Below are positions 15,495 through 63,072 of a stretch of 64,000 bases of DNA, piece after piece (positions within the stretch are counted from its first letter, which is position 1; the number at the start of each line of letters is the position of its first letter). This stretch comes from Leucoraja ocellata. Its lineage: Eukaryota. A model generated the notes under the pieces. That model ran no database searches. It was given only the letters and a program-made list of their open reading frames with translations, and was not told the DNA's origin. The stretch covers positions 1,984,001 through 2,048,000 of the forward strand of contig JAWMAR010000123.1 of NCBI GenBank assembly GCA_036785375.1. The letters are read 5' to 3'. Position numbers and translations under genes: made by a program.

Positions 15495-15635
15495 AAGAGG
15501 GAACTGCAGATGTTGGTTTAAATCGAAGGTAGACATAATCAGTCTGAAGAATGGTCTTGACCCGAATCGTCACCCATTCCTTTGCTCCAGAAATGCTGCC
15601 TGTCCTGCTGAGTTACTCCAGCATTTTGTGTCTAT
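15495..15635 (+). mobile_element. Penelope-derived hammerhead-motif mini-element with TSD
   Basis: CTGAAGAATGGTCTTGACCCGAATCGTC core (mutated); flanking repeat ctccaaatttatgaat / ctcctaattcatgaat. Confidence 0.75.
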
Positions 15636-15875
15636 CTCCTAATTCATGAATCTTTATTTTAACACAAGTCATCTACTTTTGCAGCTACTATTAAATTATG
15701 TTTTGAATTGATTATAAAATAACAAGCAATGGTATCCCTGTTATTTTATCCTCTTAATATCATTGTTCTATTCTCTTTTCTCTCTTTGATGTCAATATGG
15801 AAATTAAGTAATGAATGGAATTGAATAAGCTTTGAAAATGTTGATTTTAAAATATACTTTGCCTTTGTTCACCTT

Positions 15876-16385
15876 ATAGGAGTAGAATTAGGCCATTTGG
15901 CCCATCAAGTCTACTCTGCCATTCAATCATGGCTGATCTCTGCCTCCTAATCCCATTTTTCTGCCTTCTGCCATAACCATTGACACCTGTTCTAATTGAG
16001 AATTTGTCTATCTCTGCCTTAAAAGTATCCACTGACTTGGCATCCACAGCCCTCTAAAAGAGCGCATTTAAATTCTGAGGCTATGACCTCTGGTCCCAGA
16101 CACTCCTACCAGTGAAAACATCCTTTCCACATCCACTCTATGCCATTCATTATTCTGTAATCAATTTCAATGAGGTCCCCCCACAAACTCATAAACTCCA
16201 GCAAGTAGAGGCCCAGTGCTGTCAAACACTCATCATATGCTAACCCACTCATTCCTGGAATCATTCTTGTAAACCTCCTCTGGACCCTCTCCAGAGCCAG
16301 CACATCTTTCCACAGATATGGGGCCCACATTTGCTCACAGTGGATGCTCGAAATGTGGCCTGACCAGCGCCTTATAGAGCCTCTG
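15876..16385 (-). mobile_element. CR1-type LINE 3' fragment
   Basis: ORF WAPYLWKDVLALERVQRRFTRMIPGM; closely resembles 11950-12530 in inverted orientation. Confidence 0.9.
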
Positions 16386-17794
16386 TTGGATTATGGCAAA
16401 ATGATATCAGACGAGTCAAAAGACTAATTTGTCTCTGCCTTGTAGCTTTATTGTGTGTAAATATTGGAACCTCTGTTCCATCATTGGTAATCCACTGTAA
16501 CTGCACTGAGTAGAATTGCAACAGAGATAAATCAAACTTGTTTGAAGAGTCAACGACAGACTTTGCCCATGGTGATTGAATTTCTGATGATATTGGCAGT
16601 TCTTAAGAAGGAATAGCATTCTGGCATGCTAGACTTGGAAAAACCAAGTCAAATATTTTTTGTGGTTGTAGGTTCTATAGGACCATTATTTCAATGCTTT
16701 CCAAGGTAAATTGGTATCTCTTTAAAGATATATTTCTCCATTCTCTATTGGGGGGTAGTGACCCAAATTCAGAGCAGACATATTATTTTCAGCGTACACT
16801 GTGCAGTATTTCTCTTAACTTTTATATCGTTTTTGTATGCATTATAAAAACGTAGTTTTCAATATCTTGGACTATTTCCTCTGTGGAAATCTTATTCCTA
16901 TTGCCATCTGATTGAGCCTGATAGTATAAATATTCACACTTTCATTTTGGATTAATAGTTTTATTCATAGATACCATAAGGTGACCATAAAGTAAAAAAG
17001 TAATTGTACTATAGAATGAAGGAATGTAAATTAGCACTGGAGAAGCTATACAGCACGGAAACAGGCCCAACGGCTCATTTCATCTGCTGTCCAATTTGTC
17101 AAACTAAACTTGTCCTAGTCTAGCCCATAATCACTCCAAATTTTTCCTGTCCATGTAGTTTTGTGCCTGCCACGATCCATAGTGAGGCCTGGCTATCCTC
17201 TTGAGGAGAAGAGGCTAATTCTGCATGAATGCTCTTGTATTCATCTTAATAATCATTGCTGGGCAGCTTTGGCAGAAAATGGGAACTATTTATTCCACTT
17301 CTTTCAGTCAAGATTCATTAGAAGTAAATGTAATTCTAAAGGTTCAGTAAAAGGGAAAAAAAATAATTTGCTCAGATGTCTGGTATGCTCAAACTTTATG
17401 GTGAGGAAGACTATGAGCACAATTGTGCAGTGTTTAGATTTTTCATGATGCAGAAAAACCACAATGGGAGACAACAACGAGAAATTATTTAAGATTTGCT
17501 GTTATCTAAATTTATTTTGTTAAGCATCTAATAAATAACCAGTCAAAAGGGAGTAATTTGGGAATACAGGCCCTAGTTCATTGATTTAGTAAGTGTTGCT
17601 GTGCATTATCCCATTTGTTTTGAATATGCAGAAATCTTCTGTGTATCTGGAAATGTTTATGCCTTCAGCATACATTGTATGCACTTTGCTAAGATGAAAC
17701 TGGGTGAAATTTAAAAACACTGACACCCCAGATTTTATGAGCACTAATTTATTTTTAACCTTAAAATTGTGATGTCATTAAATTTAATGATTTA

Positions 17795-17945
17795 GAAACA
17801 TAGAAACGTAGAAAAATAGGTGCAGGAGTAGGCCCTTCAAGCCAGCACCGACCGCCATTTAATATGATCATGGCTGATCATCTAAATCAATACCCCGTTC
17901 CTGCTTTTCCCCATATTCCTTAATTCTAAATCTAACTCTAAATCT
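17795..17945 (-). mobile_element. CR1-type LINE 3' tail
   Basis: tagaaacatagaaa...aggtgcaggagtaggccc tail. Confidence 0.75.
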
Positions 17946-18659
17946 AATAGGCTCTCATTAAAAAAATATTTAAATTAGATTTATGTAATTCCTGCACACA
18001 TTTGCCATTTATTCTGAAAAAGCACAGGCCGTGGTTTATTCGTGGCAACAAGATTTTGCTGGTAACTATTGGAGAGGTTGCAATCTGCTGTGTTCAGTAT
18101 TTTATTTGACGTTGATTGCATTGGGCCCTGTTTTGTGAGCGAAACTAGAGAAATGAAACTCTAATGCAAGAAATCTACTGTTCGTGTTTGCATTATAGGA
18201 GCCACAAGCCTTAACTCAATAGATACATTTGTACTTCAGTGAAATGTATGAATTGTTGGATGTAAAAAGCCATGGCCCATATTGATCATGCTCCACTCTC
18301 TTGGTTGTGGCTAAAATAATCAAGCTCACTGCGGGTCTGTGATGCACCTCGGCATGCTACATTTATCAAATATATCACATTTATCTGCATTTTATATCCC
18401 AAATTAGTTTTTTAAATAAATGTTACTTGAAAGATTAATAGGTATCTTTTCCACTGTGGGGAAATTGATTGAGCGCTTGCTCCTTGAAATTGTTTCTTAA
18501 GACTAGTTTTGAAATTGACCTGCTGCTGTTCTGTACTGATGGCCATGGTCCACATTATTTAGTCTCTTTGGAAATCTGTTTGTATTGTGTTGTGACCAGA
18601 AAACATATGCATAATTCCAAGTGTGATTGTGATTTATAAAGTGCCAAGTATACTCACTA

Positions 18660-19060
18660 TTTCAAGAGTCAATATATGTCATATGTGCGGACAACAAATT
18701 AAATGTTTGCTTGTTGCAGCTTAGCCGGCTGTAAATGCAATAACACACAGATTAAATATAATAATCAAAAAGACAATAAATTAATAACTCTAATACTAGG
18801 TAACCATAATAGGGGAGAGGGGGGGGGGGGGACAGGGTCTGCAATGCAACCAAATAACACAGTCTAAAGAAGATCATGATTGCAGAGGTTAGTGTTGTGT
18901 AGTGTTATTGCTGGGAAGAAGCTGTTCTTGAATCTGGTCATCACGGTTTCCATGCCTCTGTGCCTTCTTCCCAATGGTAGTAGTGAAATAAAAGCATGGC
19001 CAGGATGGTGGGATCTTTAGTAGTATTGGCTGCCTTTTTAATGTTTCCTATAGATGCCTT
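18660..19060 (-). mobile_element. Rex1/Babar-like LINE 3' fragment, decayed
   Basis: gggaagaagctgttcttgaatctgg...cttcttcccaatggtag resembles the 3' end of the Rex1 copy at 30860. Confidence 0.55.
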
Positions 19061-22000: not shown

Positions 22001-22107
22001 GTGAACATTTAGAATGTTGGATGAGATGCCATTCAAATGGACAACTTTGTCCGTGACGCTGTGAAAAGGCTTTGGGGAATATACATCTCTGGAGAAAAGG
22101 AATGGGT

Positions 22108-22135
22108 GACGTTTCGGGTCGAGACCCTTCTTCAG
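22108..22135 (-). ncRNA. Minimal type I hammerhead ribozyme core (Penelope-type), intact copy
   Basis: Minus strand CTGAAGA-A-GGGTCTCGACCC-GAAAC-GTC: conserved core, stem II hairpin, palindromic ACGT stem III, GUC cleavage triplet; activity untested. Confidence 0.65.
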
Positions 22136-23019
22136 ACAGCCAAAGGCTATGGGGAGTCAGGAAATGAGCGACCAGATTTAAAATACCTAGCCTCGGACTT
22201 ACAGTTGTAGCCACAGTACTTATGTGGCTGTTCTGGCTTGTGTTTAGTCTAAGAATTGAAAGTGGGAGGCTTGGCAATATTAAAGGGTTGATGTTCTTAT
22301 TATAGATGGACATTGTCCAGCATTGAGTGCCATTTATCAATCCTTGTCTAAATAACTTCCGTGTCTTGCTGCAAGCATCATGGGTTGGCTTAGTTGTCTG
22401 AGGAGTTGCAAACACAATTGAACATTGTACAATCATTACAGACGCCAGTACGTTTGACCTAATGGTAAAAGGAAGGTCACTGATGATGCAATTCACGGTG
22501 GTTGCCCAACAGATCAGTCAGCATCGGAACGAGGAAGATTAATGTGATTTCTCGTGAACCAGGTTCTGAATGAATTGATGAATCGTTCCTATTGAAAGGT
22601 TAAACTCTGCCCTGCTGCTCTTACGCTCCCGATCTGAAAGAACATGAGATGATTTATATGTTGAGAGTAAACATAGTGGTCAACATTTTGAACCATTCCT
22701 GTGAAACCTCCTGATAGTAGGTTTCTGAACATGGGAGAAGATAATGTTGAAATAGCTACGATTTTAATAAATGATGGAGCAGGCTTGATAAGCCTATTCC
22801 TATTTCTTGCTGTCTTTTTTTTAAGCTGGGTTGATTTAAAAAAAGTGTTGATGCTTCATAGCCTCTCGGAACTTAGGACAACTTGGACTGCAGCATCCTA
22901 ATTTCTGTTTTTGCAGCCTGATTTTCACTTTTTATAAATGAATTGCCTTCCTTATATTCATTATATCTCAGGAAGCTAGCTATAATGTGTAAAGTTGTAT
23001 TTTTCTGTTGAATGGCAAG

Positions 23020-23700: not shown

Positions 23701-26449
23701 TCTTATGCACTTTAGTACTCATTGTATGTAGTTGCAATGTGCAATGTGTGTTTGCATGTCTTTGTTCATGATTCTCATCATGATTTTGCACTGAGCATGA
23801 TTTGTATTACTGCCAGTTAAGATCTGGCTCATTCATAGTCTAGTCTTTCAGTAAGATTAAAGTAGTTTGTGGCCAGTAGCATCGGAATTTTAATCCAAAA
23901 ATAATAACTCTTGCTAATGTAAAAACTACTGGTGGAAAGAAAAAGCTGTTTTGAGTTTTGTCTGAGTGGAAGGAGAACTACAGAAAATAACCAGAACATG
24001 TATTTTGTAAATAACATTTTTATAAAACATTTTCGCATTTTCCACTCTCTTGGTCTCTATGGATAATTTGCTAACAAATTATATGAAGAGGCAGCATTGA
24101 GTTGTAGCATAACCTAAAAAGACCAGTGCCCTGACTTGTGTTGTGAAACAGGTGTTCTCCAAGGGGTTTCCTTTGGTTGACGTCAGCCAAATGTTTTGGG
24201 CAAATAGCAAGAATGCAAGTTACACAAACTGCCATGCAAATCCGAAGACAAACTTGAACCATCATTTAAAAAAAAATTGTATCAGATATTAGGATAAATT
24301 TTGTTTGGTCTTTTATTGCCTCGCTAATTTAGAAATAGTCAAAAATTCATCAGCATTATTAAAACTGTTAACATTTTGATTTAACTTCTAAAACACACTC
24401 AGTATCTGCCTTAAGTTTCTGAAATGGAAATTTGTTTCAAAAAATGAGTTTGTAGTACAAGAGCCACAAACCTAAATCCTGGTTTGGTTTTTAGGTATTC
24501 TTTCAGAGTAACTAGGCAATTTAAAAAATAGAGACACAATGTTAAAACAATGAATCAAAAGTACCTGAAAGGCCATCTGTTTATGAGCTGCAGAGATCTG
24601 CAACAATTGCCAAAGATATTTCTAGTTTTATTGCCAATGGGTAGTACAGAAACATTCCCTCATTCCTGTGGTCAGCCCGGGATGGTGTTCCAGCCAGGTT
24701 GCTAATATAAACAGCATTTTGTCAGCAATAGGCTCTTGCCAATCAGTTCTTTGGAACATGATGTGGTACAGAGCTTAGATCAAAGGTGTAAGGATTGGCA
24801 TGCTGTTGTATTTTGAAATGGTACTCTTAAATCTGAGATGTTCTTTTTGGCCTTGACGATTGGTGGAAGCAAGAATCAGCAGTCCAGAATCATTATTGCT
24901 TTCAGAATGACCCTGTTTAGTCTACAGATGTTTTCTCATGCAGCTGCTGTGTTAATTAGATTACGGATCAGACTGAAGAAGGGTTCTGATTTGGCCGAAT
25001 ATTTCTTTTCTCTTGTGTCTTTGTTCTCTTGTTGCTTTCCACTCTGGTCCCCACTGTGAAAGCCAAAGATTTGCAATCAGCGTGTTTTATGATGACCCCA
25101 CAAGTATTTAAAGCAAAACATTCTTAACATGTGCTAATCTGATCACCCATTCTGTCTCTCTTTAGAGTAGGGGTTTGGGAGAGGACTTGTGGGGCAAATT
25201 ACATTTCTTTTTCGAAAAGGGAAAAAATAGCTTATGCAATGACTTTTACAACCTTGGGAATCAGAAGCTCATTGTGGCCAATAAAGCACTTTTGAAATCC
25301 CGTCACTGTTGACAGAAATTTCTGTTTCCCAATTTCTTTGTTTCTTATTCACTGTGTATAATTACATAAGAAACAAGGGGCACATATTTCTCCATTTTTA
25401 ATATATTGACATTAAAATAAACAAAACCAGATTTCTGTTAATTTTATAGTCACAAAGTCATTTTTATCCTGTCCTGTGTGAACCTCATTTACTGTATTTG
25501 CCCTGTATTGTCTTTTGAGGAGAAAAACATACATCTCCTTATGGCCTGCCAGAAATTATGATGAAAAGGATGTGCATAAAATCATAGAAATGTATTGAAA
25601 GGTATATATCATTTGGCCAGTCATGTCCATGGCACAAAAGAATGAACTTTTCAAGCTAGTCCCACTTTCTGGCTTTTGGTATGTAACCTTGTTTATCTAG
25701 TACTCATCCAGATACTATTTCAATGCAATATGGTTTTCTGCCCCCGATGCCTTTACCAGGTGGTGAGGCTGCCACTAATCAGATGAAAATATATTCTCCC
25801 CATTCTCCACCATGCTTTCCGTCAGCTACTTAAGTCTGTCATCCTTGTCGTTTGGCCCGTTTATAAGATAAAAGCTTTCCTATTTACTAATGAATGATAA
25901 TTTAAAAGACTACATATTCTGTAAATCTGAAATAAATGAAAAATACTGAAAGCGCTCAACAGGTGAGGCAGCACCTGTGAGAAGAGAATCAAAGTTAACA
26001 TTTGTCAGCATTAGAAAGGGGAGGAAAGGAAATTGAGATTGTTGCTAGGAGGATTAGGAACACAAAGGGCAGTCGTGTGCACTAGGTGCTTCCAGTATTA
26101 TCCTCTGAGTTGAAAAAATGCAAATTGATTGATAATGTGTTAATATTTCCATTTTAATGTTGCCATTTTCCATAAATGTGATGGTTGCATTGAGATCTTA
26201 GATGAAATAGTTACTGTACAAAAGTATAGCTCTGAAGTTGTAGATATTTAAATGTTGCCACTAGGTATATGCCCTGGGTCTCTCCATGACTGATTTATAA
26301 CTTCTGGGGCATTGAGTTTTGTCTAATTAACTTTTGAAAGAAGAATTATTTGAAGACAGGACTCTCTTGTTTCATGGAGAGATTATATTTATTTAAATAT
26401 GGCCTTCATTTCAAGCTGTTTAATGTCAGTATGCTTTTTGAGGAAGGAG

Positions 26450-27083: not shown

Positions 27084-27294
27084 TCGCCAGAATCATTTGA
27101 AAGAGCAGCAACAGCAACAGCAACCCCCTCCAGCACCTCCGATTCTGCTGCCTGATGAAGCTGAATGCCTTACTGTGCCTAGGTATAAACGAGACTTGGT
27201 TCAAAAGCTCAAGATCCTGAGACAAGAGCTGTCACAGCAGCAGCCCCAGGCTGGTCACTGTCGCATTGAGGTTTCAAGGGAGGAGATATTTGAG
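27084..27294 (+). CDS. SMURF2: SMURF2 exon, WW3-HECT linker: RQNHLKEQQQQQQPPPAPP...YKRDLVQKLKILRQEL...SREEIFE
   Basis: polypyrimidine tract ctccag|T acceptor, GAG|gtaaag donor, 211 nt. Confidence 0.96.
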
Positions 27295-27834
27295 GTAAAG
27301 ACTTTCCTTTATTCTCCCTCAATTTCAAAAGCAGAGTAACTAATGGTATATCACTTTGGGTCACTGTATGATTTATTTCTGTGAAAGTTTTTGAGAGACT
27401 CCAGCACCATTTCTAATTGCAGCAAAAGGAATGATTCTGCTTGCAATCACAGAATATTCCCAGTCACCCTGCTACACAAAGTAGTGTAATGAGCATTTGT
27501 TCCAAGACAAATACTCTGCAGGTGGCCTAGATAGAGTATCTCATGGGTTGATATAATTTCATATCCTGGTTGTCTGCTGCTTTAGTTTTTCATGGATTAT
27601 TTGATCTTAATTTATTCCTTCATCAGGACATATTTTTAACCAGAAGTGGACACTTTCGCAAATTGAAATCCAGGTCTTGAATTATTGCTTTAAAGGAATT
27701 ATCCTTTAAATTTAGTTTATTTTTATTCAAAACCAACTTGTTTCTGAATCTGTTTTAGTTTCTAATTAAGACTTTTTGTATGTCACTTTCTTACCATCAA
27801 GTTAGCTCCCAGAGATCACATCACTTTGCTTCTG

Positions 27835-28010
27835 CTCTTTGGATGCTTTCAAGAGAGAGCTAGATGGGGTCTTAAAAATAGCAGTCAGGGGATATGGGGA
27901 GAAGGCAGGAACGGGGTAGTGATTGGGGATGATCAGCCATGATCACATTGAATGGCGGTGCTGGCTCGAAGGGCCGAATGGCCTACTCATGCACCTATTG
28001 TCTATTGTCT
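27835..28010 (+). mobile_element. CR1-type LINE 3' tail
   Basis: ggatgctttcaagagagagctagat...ggccgaatggcctactcatgcacctattgtctattgtct. Confidence 0.85.
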
Positions 28011-28231
28011 TTCCCCATTTATGACTGACTGTGTGAGGGTGGATGGAGTGTTGATGGTCATGATTTGCAGCCCTTATGTTACCCACACTCTGCATTCTTT
28101 GACTAAAAATGTTACTTGGACTACTGTTGCAGCTGGAAAAATGGAGGAAATAAAGATTGATAAAATTTGTCGATGGGCAGTGGCATGTCCAAGTGTGGGA
28201 GGAGAGGGTGGTGATGATTATTTGAAATTGA

Positions 28232-28423
<192 letters not shown>

Positions 28424-28772
28424 TAAGTGATTCACGAAAGATAAAGCATGTGGACACTTTCTTATTGGTCTTCATTTTTCATCACTCCCTCCTCCTGAAT
28501 AAAGTTGAATCTGAATCTGAGAAGGTATTCCCTCTGAAAGTGACTTCCCGACCTGGATCCATGGTTCGCCAACAGGCATCCAAGATATATAGCCACCGCC
28601 GAGGATGACATTGCCATCTAACTTGCTCTCTTTAAACTGCTTAACCCACTGTTGCTCTGAGCTGGGCAATCCAGGGATCCAGTTTTGATTTGGAGAATTC
28701 ATGCTTCCCATGTGATTGCATTCAGAATGCAAAGTCTTTCTTTCCATCTGACCAAATTCTTCTCTAGTGGCA

Positions 28773-28961
28773 GAATTAACTGCAGATGCTGGTTAAAACG
28801 TAGATAGACACAAAAAGCTGGAGTAACTCAGCGGGACAGGCAGCATCTCTGGAGAGAAGAAGGGTGATGTCTTAAGAAGGGTCTCAACCCGAGACGTCAC
28901 CCATTCCTTCTCTCCAGAGATGCTGCCTGTCCTGCTGAGTTACTTCAGATTTTTGTGTCTA
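28773..28961. mobile_element. Fold-back Penelope-derived mini-element with central hammerhead remnant and TSD
   Basis: ~60-nt inverted arms; flanking repeat ctctagtggca / ctcttgtggca. Confidence 0.8.
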
Positions 28962-30039
28962 CTCTTGTGGCAACAGCGTCCTTGTGAATCCACACCTTTA
29001 TTGCCTGATGTTGATATGGATTTGAGCGGAGGTGATACGTAGTTACTACCAGCCAAAAGCAATTCTGACTATTTGGATTTTTAATTATCTTGATTTGGTA
29101 CCATATAAATATGGTCCTGCATTGTTATGGCCAGAAGATCAAGTAACTACAATAAAACAATTCAGCACTGAATGAAGAGAGGGTGGGAGAGGGAATTTGC
29201 ATTAGTATTGTCATTATCGTCATCAAAGTTAATAAAGTAGTTGATGTTTCTCTGGATAGAAACCCACACTTTACTGGATCGGCTTAAAAATACAAGCCAG
29301 TTAGGCTATAAAGCACACTTGACCTAGAAGCAATAGTTCTCTGCATTTTAAGTAAAGAACGCCTAGTTGGTGGTAGGTTGGATTGTAGCAATGTCAACTG
29401 AAGTTTGGCTGTTAAGAAATTTCAGCATTTGTTTTCAAATGTAAGATTAAAAAAAAATCAATATCTGGTCACGTCTAGTTAAATAATTTTCATGTGATCC
29501 TCATGTGGTTTTCTGAAGTGATGTGAATTGTCAGGCCCTACTTTAAAGAAGTGGTGCACAAGTTTTGTTTTATGTCTTTGTTTTATGTCTATGTACAATG
29601 TGGTTGATCAACGTTGCAACTAGTTTGTTATGAACACTAAGTTGAGAGTTTGTTATAGTAAATTAATTGCATTCATATTTGTAATATTACTTCCCATTGA
29701 TTAAAGAGTAAAGCTGCAATGCCATGATTTGGTGGTTTAATCTGGATCAATGTGCAGCACCATCTTGTGGCTAAATTCCTGGACCAAGCCCATGTTACAT
29801 CACTTGGAATTCATGATGTTCTTTACAATTGAAAAATGTTTTGAAATACTTTACATTCATACAGCATTAAGCATTTTTTAAGTCCCTCCCTTTTCTTCTG
29901 TCATTTTTCACCTGTAGGATTTGATTTAGTTCTTGGATTGTTCCAATGCACTTCCATCAATCTTAACCCCCCCCCCCCCCCCCCCCACTTATTTCCATGT
30001 AAACTGCTCTTTCTCACATTCCCATAAACTTCAACCTGA

Positions 30040-30608: not shown

Positions 30609-30818
<210 letters not shown>

Positions 30819-34161: not shown

Positions 34162-34320
34162 GTGTTTAAGAAAGATCTGCAGATGCTGGTAAAATGGAAG
34201 GTAGACACAAAATGCTGGAGAAACTCATAGACTCTGAAGGGTCTCGACCCGAAACGTCGCCAATTCCATAGGTGCTGCCTCACCCGCTGAGTTTCTCCAG
34301 CATTTTGTGTCTACCTTCCA
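34162..34320. mobile_element. Fold-back Penelope-derived mini-element immediately upstream of a SMURF2 acceptor
   Basis: Perfect 33-bp inverted repeat 34195-34227 / 34288-34320; core GGGTCTCGACCCGAAACGTC; flanking repeat caacttattt. Confidence 0.8.
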
Positions 34321-37445: not shown

Positions 37446-37566
37446 GCTGTACGTGAACTGGCGGTTTCTACGAGGTATTGAGGCCCAGTTTCTGGCTCTG
37501 CAGAAAGGATTCAATGAGGTGATCCCACAGCATTTGCTGAAAACATTTGATGAGAAGGAGTTGGAG
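37446..37566 (+). CDS. SMURF2: SMURF2 exon, HECT: LYVNWRFLRGIEAQFLALQKGFNEVIPQHLLKTFDEKELE
   Basis: cctcag|G, GAG|gtgagt, 121 nt. Confidence 0.97.
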
Positions 37567-38091
37567 GTGAGTTTTTGTCACGGTACATAATACCCATTTA
37601 TTCTGCGTTGGTTTTTCACACTTGGTGTCTTTTTCATTGCCATGAGAAAGTACACAGTTTACTGATTCAGAGTGAAAATGGTAGCCACACTTGCCCTGCT
37701 CCTGTAAATATGAATCTTCTGTTCCTATGTTCATATTTTCACCCTCTAACAGTCAATTAACTGGATGCCTTGTACACTTTATCCAGATGACAGCTCCGGC
37801 CTCTTATCCAGCGTTCCCACATTCTGCAACTTTAAACACATTTATTTCCATTGTTTCCCCAGTTCTAACTGAAACATTATCTCTGTTTCTCTCTCCTTGG
37901 ATGCTGTCTGACATGCTAAGTGACTTTGGCATTTTCTGTTTTTATTTCACATTTTCATCATCTGCAGTTTGTTTTTATTTAGAATTGAAATAAAAGACTA
38001 CCAGCTATTTTCAGTAGCTGGGAAATCTGGTGAGGTTACCATGTAACAAAAGAGGCACGCAGTGATGTAGGGGGGGCAGTCAGGCCTTGAG

Positions 38092-38282
38092 TCGGGCAGC
38101 ATCTCAGGAGAACATGGATAGGCGACATAACTCTTTTTCAGACTCGAGAAGAAGGTCTGAAGAAGTGTTCCGACTTGAAAAGCTAACTCAGCATTCTCTA
38201 GAGATGCTGCCTGACCTGCTGAGTTACTCCAGCACTTTGTGTCTTTTTTGGTAAACCAGTATCTGCAGTTCCTTGTCTCCAC
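38092..38282. mobile_element. Penelope-derived mini-element (decayed fold-back)
   Basis: CTGAAGAAG remnant and shared tail gatgctgcctgacctgctgagttactccagca...tctgcagttccttg. Confidence 0.7.
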
Positions 38283-38322
38283 TCTGTAACTATGTTCACT
38301 TGCTCTTTATTGACTCTTCCAG

Positions 38323-38524
38323 CTCATTATCTGCGGCCTTGGAAAGATTGATATCATTGACTGGAAATCAAACACTAGGTTAAAACACTGTACGCCAGAT
38401 AGCAATATTGTTAAGTGGTTTTGGAAGGCAGTGGAGTCTTTCGATGAGGAAAGACGAGCCCGATTACTCCAGTTTGTCACCGGATCCTCCCGAGTGCCTC
38501 TACAGGGTTTCAAAGCGTTGCAAG
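38323..38524 (+). CDS. SMURF2: SMURF2 exon, HECT: LIICGLGKIDIIDWKSNTRLKHC...LLQFVTGSSRVPLQGFKALQ
   Basis: cttccag|CTC, AAG|gtgagc, 202 nt; HECT motif LLQFVTGS. Confidence 0.97.
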
Positions 38525-39390: not shown

Positions 39391-39519
<129 letters not shown>

Positions 39520-42019: not shown

Positions 42020-43000
42020 AAACCTATAGAATTACAACTATAGTTAGAGTTCTGCTTCCTCCTACCTGTCTCCTGTAAAGACTCTGTTGCTGTTATATCT
42101 GCTCTGGCAATTTGACAAGTGCATCTGAAACGTTTGCCTTACTGATCCATTGCTTCCTCTCTGCCAAAGTGGGCAGAGCCCCAAACTAAATTCCATCTAC
42201 TTTCTGCTGTGCTCCTTCCCCCTCTGTCCCGGTGCTCTCCTTTCACCACAGCAATCTCCATATTCCACGGATCACCCGTTGGTCATTTCTGTCACCTAAA
42301 GCAAAATGACACCAACAAAATCACATGCCCCTTTCCCTTCCCTTTGAGCATTTTGATGGAACTGTTCCCTTTGCAACTCTATGGTGCAGTGTTCTATCCA
42401 CACCATTCACTGCATCCTGAGACCAGTGCAAAAACACAATATCTGTCCTTTCACATCTTGCCATCTTCCAGGTAGTGTTTGCAGGTGAAGCTGCAATTTG
42501 CTTGCACCTGCAATCCAGTGTACTGCAGTCAGTTGTTCACAATGTGGCTTCTATGTTGGAGAAACTGAAAGCAGATTGGGTGACCACTTTGTAGACTGAA
42601 CATAGGGTGACCCTGAACCTGTGCCATCCCTGTGATCCCCTGCCATCGTTACAAGAAGACCGAACTCAAGTTTGACGAGCAGTATCTCACCTCTCTGTGT
42701 ACATTACAGCCTCCTGGAATTAATATTGAAATCTCCAACTTCCATTTAACTTATTTTCTATCCATGTCGGAGCTGGGCATTTTTGTTGTGTTATTCGTCT
42801 ATGCTATTGTGTAAGTAGATGAAATTCAGTTTTTTTTTGTTTATCCCCCTTTCCATTAGCTCAACCTGGTGTGCGATCTGTAACAGATCACAGTTCCTTG
42901 TGATCCATTAACAACTTTTTGACTGCCCACAGATGCAGTCTGAGCTGCAGGATTTACCAGCATCTTTTTGTTTCAGATTTCCAGCATCTGCAGGGTTTTT
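42020..43000 (+). mobile_element. Penelope-like element, decayed GIY-YIG endonuclease region and 3' tail
   Basis: Translation VYC...CSQCGFYVGETESRLGDHF and KFDEQYL...TLQPPGINIEISNF, followed by the same tail as the mini-elements. Confidence 0.75.
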
Positions 43001-43738
43001 TTTTTGAGTTTCTGATTCGTATCCCTGATTTTGAATGGGTTCCCGAACTTGACTACAGGGAGCAGATGTAATCTAAGGTGACAACACTCAAGAATTGTTC
43101 TGTAATCTTTAGTAAGTAAATCAACCTAATGCTATTCGTACATGGTGTATATATTTCCTTGAACATCTTTTTTGATTGGAGTAGGTGATGGGAGTCTCTG
43201 TGAAAAGCTTCAACCAGAGCTTGGCACTTAATGTCAAGTGAAAGCAGAATCAGGTTCACCAGATGGAATTGGCTTTGTGCCACATTGTGTGATCTATTTT
43301 CTTATTTAGTTCTTATCATCCTGGACCAGATCACTCAATTGTTGCCCTCACTCAATGCTGCACCATTTAAGTGTCGGCTTATTGATCAATTGCACATCAC
43401 TGGTTCTCATCAGGACAAAATGCAAGAAAATATAATTTCTAGGTAGGAAAAGTCTTTCAAAGCCAGTACTTTCACAGAAAATAATATGGGTCGCAGGCAC
43501 AGTCAGTATTCATACCAACCACTTTATGAGGATAAGGTTTCTTTAATCCATGTTAGAAATTGCATTAATTCTTCACAATGGTAATAATGAAATTTATAGA
43601 TTCATACAGGGAAGAAAAAGAGCTATTCATTTAATCAAGGCTATTAACACACTGGTGTTCAAATTGTTCATTAAACTGTGTCCTCCGATTATTGCTCATC
43701 CAATCTCTAGTTTATTCGCTGAAAATGTGTTAGCAATG

Positions 43739-43950
43739 ATAGACACAGAAACCTGGAGGAACTCAGTGGGACAGGCAGCTTCTCTGGAGAAAAGGAACGG
43801 GTGACATTTCGGGTCGAGACCCTTCTGTCTCGACCCGAAACTTCACCCATCCCTTCTCTCCAGAGATGCTGCCTGTCCTGCTGAGTTACTCCAGGTTTTT
43901 GTGTCTATCTTCGGTTTAAACCAGCATCTGCAGTTCCTTCCCACACGACA
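43739..43950. mobile_element. Fold-back Penelope-derived mini-element with perfect 12-bp TSD
   Basis: ~82-nt inverted arms centred on 43821-43826; GTGTTAGCAATG at 43727-43738 and 43951-43962. Confidence 0.85.
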
Positions 43951-44690
43951 GTGTTAGCAATGGTCACTATAATTTATGAAATGTCTATGACTATAAAATG
44001 TCTCTATTATATCACCTCTTATCCTCTGCTGTTCTCCCCATAACTGAAATATCATGACCCAGGTATCATCCTGGCACTCCTCCAAGATCTTTGCAAAGTT
44101 TGGAGAAAGCTCCAGAATGGTCACATTATTCTTTCGAGGCCTTAACAAATGGTTTAGGAAAGTTTGTAACAGCTTCGTTACTTTTCTACATTATGCCTCT
44201 ATTTGTGAAGACAAATGTACTGCTTAGTGTCAGGTCCCAGCATCCTTACGCTAAAATTATTCTTTTGGGTTTATTGCCTAAATTGTCGATATTCCATGAT
44301 GGACACTCTGAAATGATGTGTCAGTTTTTTAATTTAATTATCCTAATTATGATTCTTCCTAGGAAGTAGAATGACATTGAATTGTCCTAATGTATCAGTT
44401 GGTTAATTTGTATCTCTGTGGCTTTTTGCAACCTGTTCATTTGTTACTGTTTAGATTTTGTTTCTCATCCAAATTGAAATGACCATTATTTGCCTTTTTA
44501 ATTCATAGCATTTCCATTCCAGTACTGAATAATGAGTAACTCAAACACACACAGCTATAGAATGATTAAATATTCAGATTCCAATTTTGACTCCCAACAT
44601 AAGGAACATAACCATTCATTATTTTTACATAATTACAAAGAAATTATATGAAGCCATTAATTTGTATTCCTGTGCCTGAACAATAAAAGA

Positions 44691-44822
44691 AGTCTGAAGA
44701 AGGGTCTCGACCCAAAATGTCACCCATTCCTTCTCTCCAGAGATGCTGCCTGTCCCGCTGAATTACTCCAGCATTTTGTATCTACCTTCGATTTAAACCA
44801 GCATCTGCCATTCTTTCCTACA
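44691..44822 (+). mobile_element. Penelope-derived mini-element, single arm
   Basis: CTGAAGAAGGGTCTCGACCCAAAATGTC followed by the family tail. Confidence 0.8.
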
Positions 44823-46447: not shown

Positions 46448-46700
46448 TTAGACAATAGGTTCAGGCCATTTGGCCCTTCGAGCCAGCACCGACCGCCATT
46501 CAATGTGATCATGGCTGATCATCCCCAATCAGTACCCCGTTCCTGCCTTCTCCCCATATCCCCCGACTCCGCTATTTAGCTAGAGCCCTATCTAGCTCTC
46601 TCTTGAAAGCATCCAGAGAAACTGCCTCCACCGCCCTCTGAGACAGAGAATGGCGCAGACTCACCACTCTGTGAGGAAAAAGTGTTTCCTCGTCTCCGTT
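46448..46700 (-). mobile_element. CR1-type LINE 3' end
   Basis: Tail nearly identical to the 61240 copy. Confidence 0.85.
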
Positions 46701-48169: not shown

Positions 48170-48750
48170 AAGATAGAAACATCGAAAATAGGTGCAGGAG
48201 GAGGCCATTCGGCCCATCGAGCCAGCACTGCCATTCATTGTGATCATGGCTGATCGTCCCCTATCAATAACCCTTGCCTGCCTTCTCCCCATATCCCTTG
48301 ACGCCACTAACCCCTAGTGCTCTATCTAACTCTCTTAAATCCAACCAGTGATTTGGCCTCCACTGCCCTCTGTGGCAGGGAATTCCATAAATTCACAACT
48401 CTGAGTGAAAAAGTTTTTTCTCACCTCAGTCTTAAATGGCCTCCCCTTTATTCTAAGACTGTGGCCCCTGGTTCTGGACTCACCCAACATTGGGAACATT
48501 TTTCCTGCATCTAGCTTGTCCAGTCCTTTTGTAATTTTATATGTTTCTATAAGATCCCCTCATCCTTCTAAACTCCAGTGAATACAAGCCTAGTCTTTTC
48601 AATCTTTCCTCATATGACAGTCCCGCCATCCCAGGGATCAATCTCCTGAACCTACGCTGCACTGCCTCAATCACAAGGATGTCCTTCCTCAAATTAGGAG
48701 ACCAAAACTGTACACAATACTCCAGATGTGGTCTCACCAGAGCCCTATCT
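48170..48750 (-). mobile_element. CR1-type LINE 3' fragment
   Basis: [63 protein letters not shown]. Confidence 0.92.
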
Positions 48751-49367
48751 GTTTGACCAGATACTTCAACTGACGTCTGCTATCATCTCCCCTCCAACAA
48801 ATGGGTGACAATATCACTGCTCTTATTCAACAATAGCTGAACAGCTGTTGTCAGCCCAAATGTGAGGCAATGACCTGGCTCAGGCATACAACATGGACAT
48901 AGACAAAACTTCAAATAAAGACAAGGAACTGCAGATGCTGGAATCTTGGGTGGAACACAAAGTGCTGGATTAGCATCTCTAAAAGACATGGATAGGTGAT
49001 GTTTCAGGCCAGGTCTCTTCAGTCTGACAAGATAGGTCACCTACCTTGCTTCACATAAGGCCTCAATGACCTGTTACAGTGTTGATTAATGCTGCTTTTT
49101 GTGTCCTTCAATACAAACTCATGACAAATATTCTGATTAATATTTTATAATCTAATTGATTTGAAAATGTGGTTATGGTGTGGTTAGACAAAGTTGTACA
49201 AATCTGAGTGGATGATTAGATAATAGTGAGTTTTTCCAAACTGATGCACCTTGCAAAACAATGTCCTTGCTTGCCTCGATGCCGAGACCCTGCATAAAAA
49301 CAAACCAGGAAAGTGTACTACCTTGAGATCACTAAGTGTTTACTTAGAAATATGGGTAACAAAACAA

Positions 49368-50091: not shown

Positions 50092-50609
50092 CTGCAAGGA
50101 AGCAAACAATTGACAACACAGACCACAAATGTTAGCAATGTTCACCTGCAACATCTTGTTTCTGTGGTTAGAATATTAGTGATTCAAATCTCAAATCTGT
50201 GAATGTTTCAATAATGCTTTAATCAGAGAATGAAATTAAATATCAATAACTATTTACACTATTAAGATATGCCAACTAAAAGTAGGTCTATTACAGCAAG
50301 CAAAACAAAGTACTGGAGTAGCTCAGCAGCTGTGGAGGGAATGGGCAGGTGACATTTCGCACTAAAAGGGTCCCAACTTGAAACATTGCCTGTCCATTCC
50401 CTCTGCAGATGTTGCCAGACCTCTGGCATTCTTCCAGCAGTCATTTTGCTCAAGATTCCATCACCTGCAGTTCCTTGTGTCTATTTATTGTGATGACTCC
50501 TTGCAGTGAAATATTGTACTAAAGGCCAAGTTTACAATTTACAGATGCTAACTATTCTTTTCACATTTATAGTTAAATTTCACAAATCTTTGAAAGCTTT
50601 CACACTAAA

Positions 50610-52939: not shown

Positions 52940-53057
52940 CATTATGGGGAGAAGGCAGGAACGGGATACTGATGGGGGATGATCAACCATGATCACATTG
53001 AATGGCGGTGCTGGCTCGAAGGGTCGAATGGCCTACTCCTGCACCTATTGTCTATTA
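52940..53057 (+). mobile_element. CR1-type LINE 3' tail
   Basis: ggggagaaggcaggaacggg...ggcctactcctgcacctattgtctatt. Confidence 0.8.
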
Positions 53058-53189: not shown

Positions 53190-53372
53190 TAGGAATGAAC
53201 TGCAGATGCCAATTTAAACCAAAGATACACATAAAGTGCTGGAGTAACTCAGCAGGACAGATAGGATCTCTGGAGAGAAGGAACGGGTGACATTTCGGGT
53301 CTGAAGAAGGGTGTCGATCTGAAACATCATCCATTCCTTCTCCAGCTTTTACTCCAGCTTTTTGTGCCTAGA
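53190..53372. mobile_element. Fold-back Penelope-derived mini-element
   Basis: Family arm plus CTGAAGAAGGGTGTCGATCTGAAACATC core remnant. Confidence 0.75.
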
Positions 53373-55742: not shown

Positions 55743-55998
55743 GAGAAGCACATGATTCAAACACCACTGCAAAATCAGGCCAAGGTCTTGAATAATTACA
55801 TTCTGTCGTGGGAAATTAGCCAACAATAATGTTGCTTATCCTTCAAAGGGAATGCGGGACAGAGGTAATAACTGCTGTATATCATGTTTTTACCATGTGT
55901 GAGCAAAACACCGTCAAATTCCATGCATGTATACATACTTGGCCAATAACTTTATTCCGATTCCGATAGATCACGTGTAGGCAGATCAGATTCGTGTG

Positions 55999-56200
55999 GA
56001 GGAAGGAACTGCAGATGCTGGTTTAAACCAAAGACACAAAATCCTGGAGTAACTCAGCGGGGCAGGCTGCATCTCTGGAGAGAAAGAATGGGTGATGTTT
56101 CAGACCCAAGAAGGGTCTTGAACCGAAATGTCACCGATTCCTCCTCTCCAGAGAAGGTGCCAGTCCCGCTGAGTTACTCCAGAATTTTGCGTCTATCTTG
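55999..56200. mobile_element. Fold-back Penelope-derived mini-element with TSD
   Basis: Inverted arms; flanking repeat agattcgtgtg / agattagtgtg. Confidence 0.8.
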
Positions 56201-58948
56201 AGATTAGTGTGTAGTGGCATCATGTTCGGCACAGACCAGACACTATGGGCTGAGCGGCCTGTTTCTAGACAGTTCTGTTCAATGAATACACAGAAACAAA
56301 GACCCAAACACCCTCAATCTCTCATTCACATAGACAGTGAATGGTAGAGAGCTGGAGACCAAGGACACTCAAAAGGCATGTCAACCATCAACGTATGGTA
56401 GACCAATGACCTTTTCTAAAGGACCTGCAATAAAACGAGCTAACACACAACGTCAAGACATCGTGCACCTTCAAGTGGGCCGTACAATCGCAGGGCGAGA
56501 GGGCTTTGAGTGTTGAGGAAGAGGAATATGCACATTGTAGGTCTGATCTGCAGAAAGTGTAAAAGGGTTGGAGCACTGGGTTGTCCCAAGATTCAGCCAT
56601 TTAGCTGGTGCGGTGGGGGTGGAGAATCACAACCCGATTGTGGAAGAACACAAGGAAGAGGCATTCTGAGGACCACCCATCAGGAGCAAGGATTTGCCAC
56701 TGATGGATTCCATGAGCTTGGAGTGTCTCAAAGCTGTCCCTGTGCCCTGAAGACCTGTTTGAGGAGCTGCCCACACCAACTGCTTGCCACAGGTCTAGGA
56801 TGGGAGCTCGTGTTGGGTGGCACGGCTGTCAATGCTTGCGTCAGGGCACTTGAATTGCAGAAGGAAGAGCCCAGATTTCATAGGACATCCCAACCATCCC
56901 GAGTGCTTTTAAATAGCTAGTCAGCTATTTACACAAACATGGTGCTGCATGACAGAACTTTAAGCCAGTGTGATTTTACTCGATTCCCACCTCAATACCA
57001 TGAGGGAAAAAAAGTCACCAGCTGTGCTCTGGCTGAAAACAGTCGAAGCAGCCACACCAAATGTTTTTCCAATTAGAACTATTCGGAGAATAGAACTTAG
57101 AGTGCCATGGAGAATGAAGAGACAATGATGAATTAGAATCATGAAATGTGAGCACAGGCTGCAACTGAACATTTCTGAGGACGAGCCACTGCAAAGTTCA
57201 CATGAGGCAGCATCAATTCAACCAGCTGAATGGCTTGCTTCTCTGCTGCCAATGTGCCTTTGAGTTTCAGCTCACGTTTTGGTTTAATGCACCCAGGTTT
57301 GATTCTGAACATGCCTACAATTTTCCCCATCAGATTTCAATGACAACATTTGTGTTTCTGATGTTGGGTTGGGAGAGAGAGAGAGGCAAGTATTGGTTTC
57401 AGGCAGAGAGTAGGAAAAAGAAAAAAGCAAGTTTAAAGAAAGTATTGGTAGAAAGCTTGGTCATTGACAGAGTAAATCCAGATAGCTTCTTATCAATTCT
57501 CTTGTTAACAAATAAAAATGACCACAACATCTGCAGGGCTGAAGCAATGTTAAGTGGTCACCGAATCAGAGAATGTGGGGATGGGAGCAAGCATTGCATG
57601 AGATGGAGTTAACATTGAGGCTGGTGAGGAGGTGACTGTTGCGCAAATTGATTCTTTGTCAAGGAAGTTTGGAAAAGTTCATTCCTTTGTTACCTGTAGA
57701 CAAAGGTTCAACAGCTGTGTGGTGGCGTTTATGCTTTTCCAAATGTAATTAGCCAATTTTAGCAGATGTGTGTCGTCACCAAATTTCATCTGATACTTTC
57801 ACTGTAGTTTTAATGGGGTGGAGAGCAAGGTTAAATAAAATCAGTATTTGACTATTGACAATTTAGTAGCCAGTTGTAGAAATTACACTAGACATACTGG
57901 TTTAAAAAACACAATGAGCCTGGGCAGAACTGTTGGTATTTCCCAGCATAAAAGGACAATGTAAAAGCAGGAGTCTTAACCCTCCTGACTGTTGCATGCC
58001 CCCTGGATTCCCCGTGAGGTCCAGCAGCAGTATGGGAACATGCTGAGACACCACACAATTGACACAGGAGATGGTCCACCGGTCGAGTACCAGATTTCCC
58101 CCGACAAGAGGCAGGAGTTCATACACTTGAATGGAGAGCGGGTGGCGAGGAAGAACAAGCAACATGTCACTACGTCACTCTATGGCCAACAAGCACCCTG
58201 ATGTCAGCAGCAGAACCACTAGATCGAGAGCTAGAATGGGGAATGCGGCCATTTAATGAACTATTTCCCCATTTAGTGGCCAAGCCTGATCAAATAGGAA
58301 GCCAATTATCCAATTCACCTCTCCCGTGTTCCAAGTCTCGGAGAAGGCCCAATGTTTGTAGCTTAACCTATCTAGATCTCCTTTGTCCCATCTCGGGTCC
58401 CACTTGCCAGTCCTCACCTTCCATCCCACAATTCTCCCTCTGATCATCAGCAGCCGTGTCTAGTGCCGCTCCTTCTGGGATTCGGATCCAGATTCGATCT
58501 GGATTGGCCATTGAATGGGAACAAGGGCTTGATTCGGTTCCAGCATCCTTCCCACCTGTGTCATTATTGTTCAAGTTCAAAACCTGGCCTCATCTTTGAT
58601 CATTTCCCAAGGCACCGGCCTAGTGTCTGCTCATCTGTCCTCCCTTACTTTCACCAACAGCTGGGTAGGCTGTTTTATGCCAAAGAAACTTGTTGATGGC
58701 TGTTCTACCCAGACCAGCTTTTCTCTGAACTCAATGAAACTGAGATTAAAACAACAGTGGCACATACCAGGGTAAAGTTCAATGGTGGGGAGAGTGGGTG
58801 GGTGGGGGAGGGCTGCTTGATCCGGTGTACTTTGGCTCCACTGCAATGCTGTACAATTATCTTTGGTGGTTCCACAAGTTAACACGTTTCTCTCAAAAAT
58901 CACAACTTTCCATTCAGCAAAACTCAAGCGATTTCTTTGAATTCTTAC

Positions 58949-59357: not shown

Positions 59358-59450
59358 TGTTTTCTTCACTTTTGTTACTTCTTTTCCAATTTTAGCTTTC
59401 TCTTTTTTCTTGTAATGTTCCAGTTCGTCTTTGTAACACTCACTCACTGC
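59358..59450 (-). CDS. CEP95: CEP95 exon: AVSECYKDELEHYKKKEKAKIGKEVTKVKKT
   Basis: ctttag|GCA, ACA|gtaagt, 93 nt, open frame. Confidence 0.85.
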
Positions 59451-60520: not shown

Positions 60521-61237
60521 CAGTGCAGGGAATAGAGACCGACAAGGTTGCATCTATTATGCAATATTTGATGTTCCAAACTGCCTCATTCTATTTCAAT
60601 TTTTAAAAAGTATTCTTTGCACCATCCACAACAAGAGGTTAGAGATTTGGCATCAGCCCTATTCAAAACCGTTGCAAAGTAACTAAATCTCAAATATACA
60701 TTTTTCCTGAATATTGCAAGTTTTGTGATCTGCACTAGATGCAATAGGCTATCTGACATGGTTCTATCAGCCCACCTTATCAAGGTTACGCTGGCTGAAG
60801 GCACAACAGAAAATAACATTGAAGAAGTTGCAGTCAGATGATTCACTGTTTCCACGGCAACATACTCTTGCTTTCCCTGCCCACAAATGTCCCAAGCACA
60901 AGCTTTGACATTGAATATTCTTCAGCTGCCTGTTGTGAACGACCCAAACATACAATATTTACAGTCCAATGGACTCAACTGGAATCTGTATCCCTCTCAG
61001 CTTTTAATACATTATTCATTTCACCCAGAAGCCCTGAGACAGGAAAGAAAACCTAAAACTGGAATTTAAATGCTGTTGCCTAACTTTTATGGCTTCAAGA
61101 AAACCCTCCAAAAATTGTATAAATGGCATAAAGCAGGAAACAAATGTCAAGAGAACACTTCTACAGAACCCCAATTAAAAAGATAAATTCTAACTCTGGA
61201 CTTTCTAACACCGAGGCGTTTTGCATCTTAGTATTTA

Positions 61238-61705
61238 AAGACAATAGACAATAGGTGCAGGAGTAGGCCATTCGGCCCTTCGAGCCAGCAACGCCATTCA
61301 ATGTGATCATGGCTGATCATCCCCAATCAATACCCCGTTCCTGCTTTCTCCCCATATCCCCGACTCCGCTATTTTTAAGAGCCCTATCTAGCTCTCTCTT
61401 GAAAGCATCCAGAGAACCCGCCTCCACTGCCCTCCGAGGCAGAGAATACCACAGACTCACCACTCTCTGCGAGACAAAGTGCTTCCTCGTCTCCATTCTA
61501 AATGGCTTACTCCTTATTCTTAAACGGTGGCCCCTGGTTCTGGACTCCCCCAACATCAGGAACACGTTTCCTGCCTCTAGCGTGTCCAAGCCCTTAACAA
61601 TCTTATATGTTTCAATGAGATTGCCTCTCATCTTTCTAAACTCCGAGTGTACAATCCCAGCTGCACCATTCTCTCAGCATATGAGTCCCGCCATCCCGGG
61701 ACTTA
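61238..61705 (-). mobile_element. CR1-type LINE 3' fragment, low divergence
   Basis: ORF RGNLIETYKIVKGLDTLEAGNVFLMLGESRTRGHRLRIR...FKRELDRAL. Confidence 0.92.
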
Positions 61706-61937
61706 CCTGGAGTAAGTCACTACACTGTGGAACCGAATGACGTGTTCAATATGCCCAATGACAATATGTATGTTTAGAGTATTAACAATAATCTGGAATC
61801 CGCGTCAGTTTTGACAGCTGGTCTTCAGGTTCCTTTTTGCCTCACCAGGGTTCCAGTTCCCATGCTTCCTTCCAATTAGCCGGGACCCCAATTCCCATAC
61901 TCCCTTTAAATTCACTGGGTAATTAGAATACCACTTG

Positions 61938-62071
61938 TTTAAGAAGGAGCTGCAGATGCTGGAAAAATCAAAGGTAGATAAAAAAGCTGGAGAAACTCAG
62001 CAGGTGAGGCAGCATCTATGGAGCAAAGGAATAGGTGACGTTTCGAGTCGAGACCCTTATTCAGATGGTTC
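61938..62071 (-). mobile_element. Penelope-derived mini-element, single arm, with TSD
   Basis: Minus-strand core CTGAATAAGGGTCTCGACTCGAAACGTC; flanking repeat ataccacttg / atactacttg. Confidence 0.8.
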
Positions 62072-62204
62072 ATACTACTTGATTTTTTTTTTTTTTTTAT
62101 AACCACAAATTGAAAATACTGGTATATTAATAGGATTATTACAAAAACAGTTTGGAAAATAACTGGAGTAACTCAGGTCAGGTAGCATCTCAGAAGAAAA
62201 CGGA

Positions 62205-62640
62205 TCATAAGAGATACGAGTAGAATTAGGCCATTTGGCCCATCAAGACTCCTCCATTCAATCATGGCTCTATCTCCCTCCTAACCCCATTCCCCTGCCT
62301 TCTCCCCATAACCTCCGACACCTAAACTAATCAAGAATCTATCTATCTCTGCCTTAAATCTATCTCTGCCAAAATTTCCACAGATTCATCACCCACTGAC
62401 TAAATAAATTCCTCCTCATCTCCTTCCTAAAATAACATCCTTTAATTCTGAGGCTGTGACCACTTGTCCTAGACTCTCCCACTAGTGGAAACATCCTCTC
62501 CATATCCACTCTATCCAAACCTTTCACTATTCTATATATTTGAATGAGGTCCCTCTTCATTCTTCTGAACTCCAGCGAGTACAGGCCCAGTGCTATCAAA
62601 CGCTCATCATAAACTATTCATTCCTGGAATCATTCTTGTC
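62205..62640 (-). mobile_element. CR1-type LINE 3' fragment nested in a Penelope-derived mini-element (arms at ~62155-62205 and ~62640-62785)
   Basis: [51 protein letters not shown]; family arms on both sides. Confidence 0.85.
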
Positions 62641-63072
62641 AATGATAGGTAACATTTCAGACTGGGAAGAGTCCTGACCCAAATGTCACCCATCCATGTT
62701 CACCAGAGATGCTGCCTCACCCGTTGAGTCACTCCAGCACCTTGTCTTGATTTGTAAACCAGCACCTGCAGTCCCTTCTGTCTCCAGTTGGAACATTTGC
62801 CAGTCCAGCATCAAAGCATGCTGGATTATTGCAGCTTTACTATGGTCAAAGGTAAAGAAACGATGCAAATGTAAATTGTTCAAATTCTATTGCATGCATG
62901 TGAAATACAATTTACAACTGGACTAGCTCTGCAGCATTTGTGTAATACAACACAATATTTTTTCAAAGCTATGTCTTATGAAAGTAACACGTTGTGTAAT
63001 GTGGTTTGTTTTTGGGGTGCCACAAGCTGTGCTTGAAGCAGTTGCCAGATTTTGGGGCTATTGCCAACTTGC

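Follow-up and report, generated by a model that had tools for sequence, protein, structure and literature searches.

Insertions of Penelope-like elements (PLEs) have been described as carrying, besides a 5'-truncated copy in inverted orientation, a tail of 30-40 bp that is often present at one end only (PMC8557442). Another account reports 8-10 bp target-site duplications (TSDs), a 31-bp tail on one inverted pseudo-LTR (pLTR), pLTRs that occur solo, and head-to-head junctions that bear palindromes, and proposes self-priming on an antisense template (PMC3846280). Penelope is described with a 34-bp repeat, inverted termini and a 5' intron (PMC2377424). In vitro, each of the two target strands is cut and extended, and reverse transcription begins internally, at a pair of sites bounding the tail; uncleaved RNA is the main substrate, and a dimer is predicted (PMC11167929). 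Retrozymes, on the other hand, are defined by head-to-tail tandems (PMC7229834; 10.64898/2026.07.22.740005). How PLEs come by their inverted repeats, and why their tails are one-sided, is treated as an open question in these accounts (PMC11167929, PMC8557442, PMC3846280). Here we analyse a 64,000-nucleotide stretch of the skate Leucoraja ocellata (contig JAWMAR010000123.1, positions 1,984,001 to 2,048,000; hereafter the window), which holds a dense family of short fold-back repeats with a hammerhead motif. Taken as a whole, these loci are very probably scars of PLE insertion. They most likely present a known structure in miniature, each locus being a dead PLE insertion product that lacks an open reading frame (ORF) and consists of the last ~130 nt of a pLTR, either solo or with an inverted copy.

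Structure of the repeat family

A profile built from 12 arms picked by hand was run on the window and on a reversed-window control. It found 28 arms at E<0.01, among them all 13 loci that a preliminary description of this DNA had listed as related repeats; the control gave four matches, the best at E=0.11. The same profile also detects six older related loci (1432, 1734, 13125, 25909, 37868 and 42926), whose upstream flanks have nothing in common elsewhere in the window by blastn, and there is a further stub at 24969 (E=0.001). We number the unit from C3 of the CUGA box, which is position 1 and puts the hammerhead cleavage site between 28 and 29. Each of the 13 loci consists of one ~130-nt unit, a minimal hammerhead motif followed by a tail (Table 1). 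The repeats described before are real; the full motif is intact in a single copy, on the minus strand at 22135. Where 130-210 bp had been given first, the elements range from 55 bp (22084) to ~215 bp. Head-to-head fold-backs make up ten of the loci; the other three (22084, 44690 and 61938) are solos. Eight of the fold-backs are adjacent pairs, a ninth (62150-62786) is interrupted by a 436-bp insertion of another repeat, and the tenth (48920), whose second arm is only a stub, was read by eye.

At least four young subfamilies, sorted by eye on diagnostic bases, have an identical layout. The two arms of a locus have diagnostic bases in common wherever these are present: eight at 50298, four at 38091, three to five at 62150 and two at 34162. 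Copies that show junctions, about ten in number, are 5-35% diverged. The arms of the 34162 fold-back (34165-34227 and 34289-34318) are identical in 30/30 shared columns, other pairs differing at 10-35%, and may represent either a young copy or homogenisation by hairpin repair.

The family occurs in skates, because the translated repeat at 44685 matches residues 739-775 of a Rhinoraja longicauda gene model, XP_078272509.1 (68% over 37 residues). The unit lies in frame within that model, which may be exonisation or a gene-prediction error. In the window, one reading frame is open through the entire unit at 44685-44825 (+); the same frame is closed in subfamily C, so its openness is probably chance. 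Two exact-motif scans of bacterial and archaeal genomes returned 0 matches, as did blastn against phages and plasmids. For a tRNA-like head, ARAGORN called 0 tRNA genes and Rfam gave no tRNA match, although decayed heads could elude both. Literature searches, with most subscription papers outside reach, found neither a description of the skate family nor a twin-priming model for PLEs; the family may well be catalogued already in repeat collections.

Ends, target sites and junctions

Flanking direct repeats reach p<0.05 at 8/13 loci when compared with 4000 random position pairs, with unadjusted p-values under which ~0.65 of 13 loci would be expected by chance. After extension by eye they measure 10-18 bp, where six repeats of 10-16 bp had been noted before, and several run a few bases into the element end. 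Weak repeats flank two more loci (48920, p=0.054; 50298, p=0.125). Short, palindromic repeats could suggest a miniature inverted-repeat transposable element or another DNA-transposon fold-back element. Such an origin is close to excluded, as the preliminary description had held: TSD length is variable, solos have TSDs too, the two ends are never alike, one being long and the other short, and the tail is common to long ORF-bearing copies.

The arms favour two 3' ends: the long end aligns to 124-128, and the short end falls at 84-96, with five at 94-96. Exactly one long end occurs in each of the 10 fold-backs, and never two. The partner arm has the short end in 8/10, ~30-40 nt before the long end, and in the other two it breaks off earlier; eight discordant end pairs out of eight have p=0.004 under independent 50:50 ends. 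Among the three young solos, two have the long end and the third, 22084, ends at unit 52. With its single long end and palindromic junction, this arrangement bears out the Penelope-like origin and inverted-pLTR layout that had been proposed.

On the 5' side, some arms stop inside the unit at varying positions (5, 11, 16, 20, 21, 28, 66 and 83), and the remainder reach -1 to about -7, none going beyond. These 5' ends are not random but cluster within a few bases of the motif start. The boundary is marked by a palindrome, TCAG-N-CTGA, centred on -1, and all three of its occurrences in the window lie inside these elements; in the older long copy at 13097 it has a two-base centre. Fold-back centres coincide with the 5' edge of the motif or fall slightly within it, and as a rule a single arm has the motif whole, so that the palindromes described earlier are real but are not centred on the motif itself. 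Because junctions vary from copy to copy and no fewer than four subfamilies repeat one layout, the copies were probably made independently. Those two observations come near to the outcome that the preliminary description had set against its own reading, namely copies that are only random truncations of full-length elements with no uniform subfamily, from which they depart in their non-random 5' ends. We rejected a fold-back master copied in a single pass, since second-arm ends cluster at 94-96 and junctions vary.

The clustering of 5' ends near the motif start leaves room for a short dedicated template, an RNA of the same PLE origin whose own 5' end lay at -3 to -1. It could be the 5' end of a PLE mRNA, primed at the upstream copy of the start sites, or a short non-autonomous master with a start site of its own, and would be compatible with two-ended priming. 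All three young solos end at -2, -2 and -1 beside the TSD, young loci have no upstream sequence in common, and TCAGTCT at the unit start fits what we take to be the initiator consensus. Older copies, long ones among them, show a pyrimidine-rich stretch ending in CAG immediately before the motif (13060-13101 and 37822-37863), which resembles a splice acceptor abutting stem I, like that of D. virilis Penelope; splicing there could alter stem I. CAG|T likewise fits the 5'-UTR intron acceptor abutting helix I reported for Drosophila Penelope (PMC4209133), and non-autonomous PLE derivatives are described in Chlamys (PMC8557442). However, the same boundary is found in at least four subfamilies, the palindrome at -1 would supply it without any start site, and the D. 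virilis start site is placed further upstream, by 46 nt and a 75-nt intron (PMC2377424). We consider this template unlikely.

Junctions bear on a further alternative, self-priming (snap-back) at the palindrome, whether of an antisense template or of the first cDNA, with the short end set by endonuclease (EN) resolution. The palindrome does sit at the junction, a model of this kind has been proposed for rotifer PLEs (PMC3846280), the tail has been attributed to EN-mediated resolution (PMC8557442), and the antisense version permits what is usually seen here, that the short arm is the one reaching the centre. Snap-back from the long-arm cDNA, by contrast, predicts one fixed centre base, which is found at one of five readable junctions: the base is A at 55997, 62150 and 50298, and T at 15495 and 48920. 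At 38091 there are two complete arm starts separated by a spacer, and at this locus and probably at 34162 each arm has its own -1 base, which fits two separate cDNAs. Priming of sense RNA at two sites and on both strands has moreover been shown in vitro (PMC11167929). On balance, self-priming seems rather improbable.

We favour, with moderate confidence, two-ended priming at two reverse transcriptase (RT) start sites. As published in vitro work suggests, uncleaved RNA would be bound by the PLE protein and the target nicked. One target end would then prime at the downstream start site (unit ~125-130) to give the long end, a pattern observed here, and the other would prime 30-40 nt upstream (unit ~95) to give the short inverted arm. 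The two cDNAs would join at or near the TCAG-N-CTGA palindrome, or at nearby microhomologies of 2-6 nt; having the same polarity, they could be joined only via self-complementary sequence. Staggered nicks would leave the TSDs of 10-18 bp observed at the flanks, and the inserted copy would decay neutrally, as the copies are seen to do. The hammerhead would be a passenger of the pLTR that sets neither end. LINE-1 twin priming offers a parallel: there, too, both target strands prime cDNA and an inverted segment is joined by microhomology. The L1 cDNAs copy different parts of the RNA, whereas both skate cDNAs would copy the same ~95 nt, with a true palindrome as the result.

The hammerhead motif

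At the sequence level the consensus has the features of a minimal type I hammerhead, with the core bases, a bulge before G10.1, the G10.1-C11.1 pair and a palindromic stem III, in keeping with the motif assigned originally. A loose hammerhead descriptor finds four further sites besides 22135, two of them outside the family. The Rfam search that had been suggested as a check gave nine matches at E<=1, all under the gathering score, with hairpin look-alikes at the top and no hammerhead among them; this miss is expected for a loopless stem III, yet lends no support. Among eight copies, stem I is 2 bp in four, 0-1 bp in three and 4 bp only at one fold-back junction, where most minimal type I hammerheads have 4-5 bp. 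The D. virilis hammerhead is also reported with a 2-bp stem I (PMC4209133).

For the two youngest subfamilies, decay was counted in 15 arms as difference from the consensus. At non-CpG positions it affects 6/94 cells in the core and 46/674 in the tail (73/795 with ten diagnostic columns kept), and CpG positions differ in 23/107 cells. Decay is equally fast in core and tail, and is therefore neutral. In a covariation test on 14 rows, three of them poorly aligned and all from neutrally decaying copies, no measure rose above shuffles. By predicted folding, the energy needed to keep the core open is ~10-20 kcal/mol in five fold-backs (the value for 28768 being approximate, with the constraint one base off) versus 4-6 kcal/mol in three solos, and the fold-back form is thus predicted to bury the cleavage site. 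A modelled dimer with intermolecular stem III, stem I left out, reaches -12.7 kcal/mol against a cofold minimum of -24.1 kcal/mol.

Among 23 young arms, none starts at position 29, and arms that cross the site bear the motif uncut; the inserted RNA was therefore not cleaved. Within the window there is no head-to-tail tandem of the unit. Two pairs of same-strand neighbours, spaced by 92 and 221 nt, consist of separate fragments, and in each pair one member lacks the motif. These results tell against the proposal in the preliminary description that the repeats are ribozyme-processed, retrozyme-like non-autonomous RNA elements. The consensus does fit a minimal hammerhead, copy density is high, and retrozymes are reported to derive from PLE pLTRs and to occur in the sole cartilaginous fish sampled (10.64898/2026.07.22.740005). 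Tandem units and arms beginning at 29 are nevertheless missing, only one core is intact, stem I has 2 bp, the core is costly to open in fold-backs, covariation and Rfam add nothing, and junctions vary, all of which makes such processing very improbable. At such density, genomic hammerhead matches are no sign of an active ribozyme.

Relationship to coding elements

The tails at 42926-42994 and 13125-13201 match the majority consensus at 74% and 73% (E=2.6e-5 and 1.7e-3). They are related to the family but belong to an older subfamily, which qualifies the earlier statement that GIY-YIG copies end in the same tail; the GIY-YIG assignment itself is unconfirmed by Pfam or protein searches. Upstream, the two older long copies are homologous as DNA (score 71; 0/982 random pieces as high) and not significantly alike as protein (47/491 random pieces as high). 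The frame at 42489-42596, CSQCGFYVGETESRLGDHF, has a weak lead in the Atlas, where the fourth-listed cluster (score 0.90, recognition 2732) has GIY-YIG on 12% of its members; a second ORF piece had no Atlas match. We presume the remnant to resemble the endonuclease end of fish PLEs, of the kind labelled Neptune, a likeness that protein searches left unconfirmed. The PLE assignment is carried by the structural match and not by the GIY-YIG ORF link.

Genomic context

Several repeats sit in introns of a HECT E3 ligase gene, which we take to be SMURF-like, with exons at 38314-38520 (+) (Pfam HECT E=1e-22), 37501-37566 (+) and ~27090-27300 (+). For seven of eight fold-backs the predicted minimum free energy lies between -60 and -143 kcal/mol, and intronic copies would form long double-stranded RNA, possibly a substrate for editing or for siRNA production. 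The 436-bp repeat at 62206-62641 lies inside the left arm of the 62150 fold-back, which must therefore be the older, and has a 3-base GAT repeat on both sides; its relatives in the window are at 12059-12533 and 15876-16270, and it is presumably a CR1-like 3' end. At 31041-32457 (-) there are two adjacent LINE reverse transcriptase frames (RVT_1, with an ALKBH8_N match), which we take to be a probably fairly young element of Rex/Babar- or L2-like type. A second abundant repeat family (8023-8250, 17805-17880, 27873-28012, 46446-46673, 48177-48620, 52943-53056 and 61237-61630), some of whose copies are 94-97% alike, looks like CR1-type 3' ends.

Table 1. Repeat loci and older relatives in the window (positions of the window; unit positions as defined in the text)
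Type	Position	Strand	Arms or unit	TSD and remarks
Fold-back	15495..15639		long arm 15495-15539 (-, unit 83-124); short arm 15540-15639 (+, -3 to 95)	18-bp TSD 15477-15494 / 15634-15651
Solo	22084..22138	-	unit -2 to 52	16-bp TSD 22065-22080 / 22142-22157; only intact hammerhead core (C3 at 22135)
Motif stub with junction palindrome	24968..24991	+		
Fold-back	28768..28968		long arm (-, ~26-126); short arm (+, -2 to 96)	11-bp TSD 28762-28772 / 28962-28972
Fold-back, subfamily A	34162..34318		long arm (-, 66-128); short arm (+, to 95)	15-bp TSD 34148-34162 / 34319-34333
Fold-back, subfamily C	38091..38282		left arm (-, -2 to 60); ~10-nt spacer; long arm (+, -2 to 125)	TSD none found
Fold-back	43736..43948		short arm (-, 5-94); long arm (+, 11-126)	perfect 12-bp TSD 43727-43738 / 43951-43962
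Solo long unit	44690..44822	+	unit -2 to 127	10-bp TSD 44682-44691 / 44823-44832
Fold-back	48920..49045		long arm (-) with internal deletions; inverted-arm stub past junction palindrome at 49019	weak 10-bp TSD
Fold-back, subfamily D	50295..50482		short arm (-, 20-89); long arm (+, to 124)	weak 7-8 bp TSD
Fold-back	53190..53370		long arm (-, 16-125); short arm (+, -2 to 90, internal deletion)	TSD none found
Fold-back	55995..56201		long arm (-, 21-126); short arm (+, -3 to 95)	14-bp TSD 55988-56001 / 56201-56214
Solo long unit, subfamily A	61936..62066	-	unit -1 to 128	10-bp TSD 61928-61937 / 62072-62081
Fold-back, subfamily C	62150..62786		short arm (-) 62150-62205 + 62642-62658; long arm (+) 62655-62786	unrelated 436-bp repeat between short-arm parts; TSD none found
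Older long copy	42420..42994	+		decayed ORF end (GIY-YIG-like, weak lead), untranslated stretch, decayed motif, long tail
Second older long copy	12645..13201	+		DNA-level homologue of 42420-42760; long tail at end
Older solo	1734..1849	+		decayed motif, long tail; pyrimidine-rich sequence upstream
Older tail fragment	1432..1513	+		
Older tail fragment	25909..25985	-		
Older solo	37858..37971	+		stem II deleted, long tail

Discussion

The skate repeats share with EN+ PLEs (PMC3846280, PMC8557442, PMC2377424) an inverted copy, a junction palindrome, a 30-40 nt tail at one end, TSDs of ~10 bp, solo pLTRs and, at the sequence level, a hammerhead motif close to the 3' end of the pLTR. They differ from these elements, as described there, in having no ORF between the repeats, a length of only ~130 nt, a 5' limit fixed at the motif start and a density of about one locus per 4-5 kb in the window. 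Their motif matches the minimal hammerheads of metazoan PLEs (PMC4209133) in its CUGANGA box, the extra base before G10.1, the G10.1-C11.1 pair and a loopless palindromic ACGU stem III, and those hammerheads too are reported as mostly single, tied to truncated PLEs, with pairs on opposite strands. Stem II is 4-5 bp in the skate versus 7-8 bp in that account, stem I is 2 bp in its genomic context, and paired motifs abut rather than lying 100-700 bp apart (PMC4209133). Two of that paper's three supplementary files (all but file 1) hold no shark or skate hammerhead entry. Poseidon PAc of Anolis (PMC11167929) is alike in its start sites ~100-130 nt downstream of the hammerhead, the insertion of uncleaved RNA and the priming of both strands; it belongs to another clade and host, and its ORF is reported to start inside the ribozyme, where the skate consensus has no ATG. 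Metazoan non-LTR retrozymes (PMC7229834; 10.64898/2026.07.22.740005) are likewise non-coding and pLTR-derived, with a type I hammerhead and long TSDs, but are described as head-to-tail repeats of 150-450 bp with a ribozyme per unit and expressed circles, whereas the skate repeats are head-to-head or single and uncut at the ribozyme.

Several observations weigh against a PLE origin or against two-ended priming as its mechanism. The mechanistic reading is drawn from about ten decayed junctions. Some of these could have arisen later, when an unstable palindrome lost its centre, and at 48920 and 50298 the A at -1 could be characteristic of the subfamily. Partner arms are seldom mutual nearest neighbours by identity (rank 1 in 4/20 comparisons). 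TSDs were not found at 3/13 loci (38091, 53190 and 62150), and the 55-bp solo at 22084, with its 16-bp TSD, ends at neither favoured start site. The stop of young solos at -1 or -2 is unexplained by twin priming alone. The window contains no autonomous element. On the protein side, none of nine frames of the ORF remnants had a meaningful Pfam score, and word-based searches with two frames of the 42470 remnant gave no candidates. A phmmer match to a 5271-aa Hydra protein, aligned via 11 weak repeats, was rejected, as were PDB sequence matches of the ORF remnant, which were chance hits to MCM7.

Two extensions of the two-ended reading go further. It is possible, if doubtful, that the fold-backs are an in vivo record of a PLE protein dimer priming both strands at its two RT start sites, with the cDNAs joined at a built-in palindrome that the hammerhead CUGA box would form with the complementary bases directly upstream. 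It is quite unlikely that the unit, running from -3 as far as the tail, serves on its own as a short template that is moved uncleaved, a PLE-driven equivalent of a SINE distinct from retrozymes.

As a family the repeats are ordinary, since PLE ends with hammerheads, inverted copies and tails have all been published already. Their value is mechanistic, as a dense record of PLE integration in which tiny, abundant, TSD-bounded copies permit two-ended priming to be told apart from self-priming by direct counting. If dimer priming is true, a single step would account for the inversion of the pLTR, for the tail being one-sided and for the palindrome at the junction, the antisense self-priming model would be replaced, and skate genomes would offer many thousands of such events.

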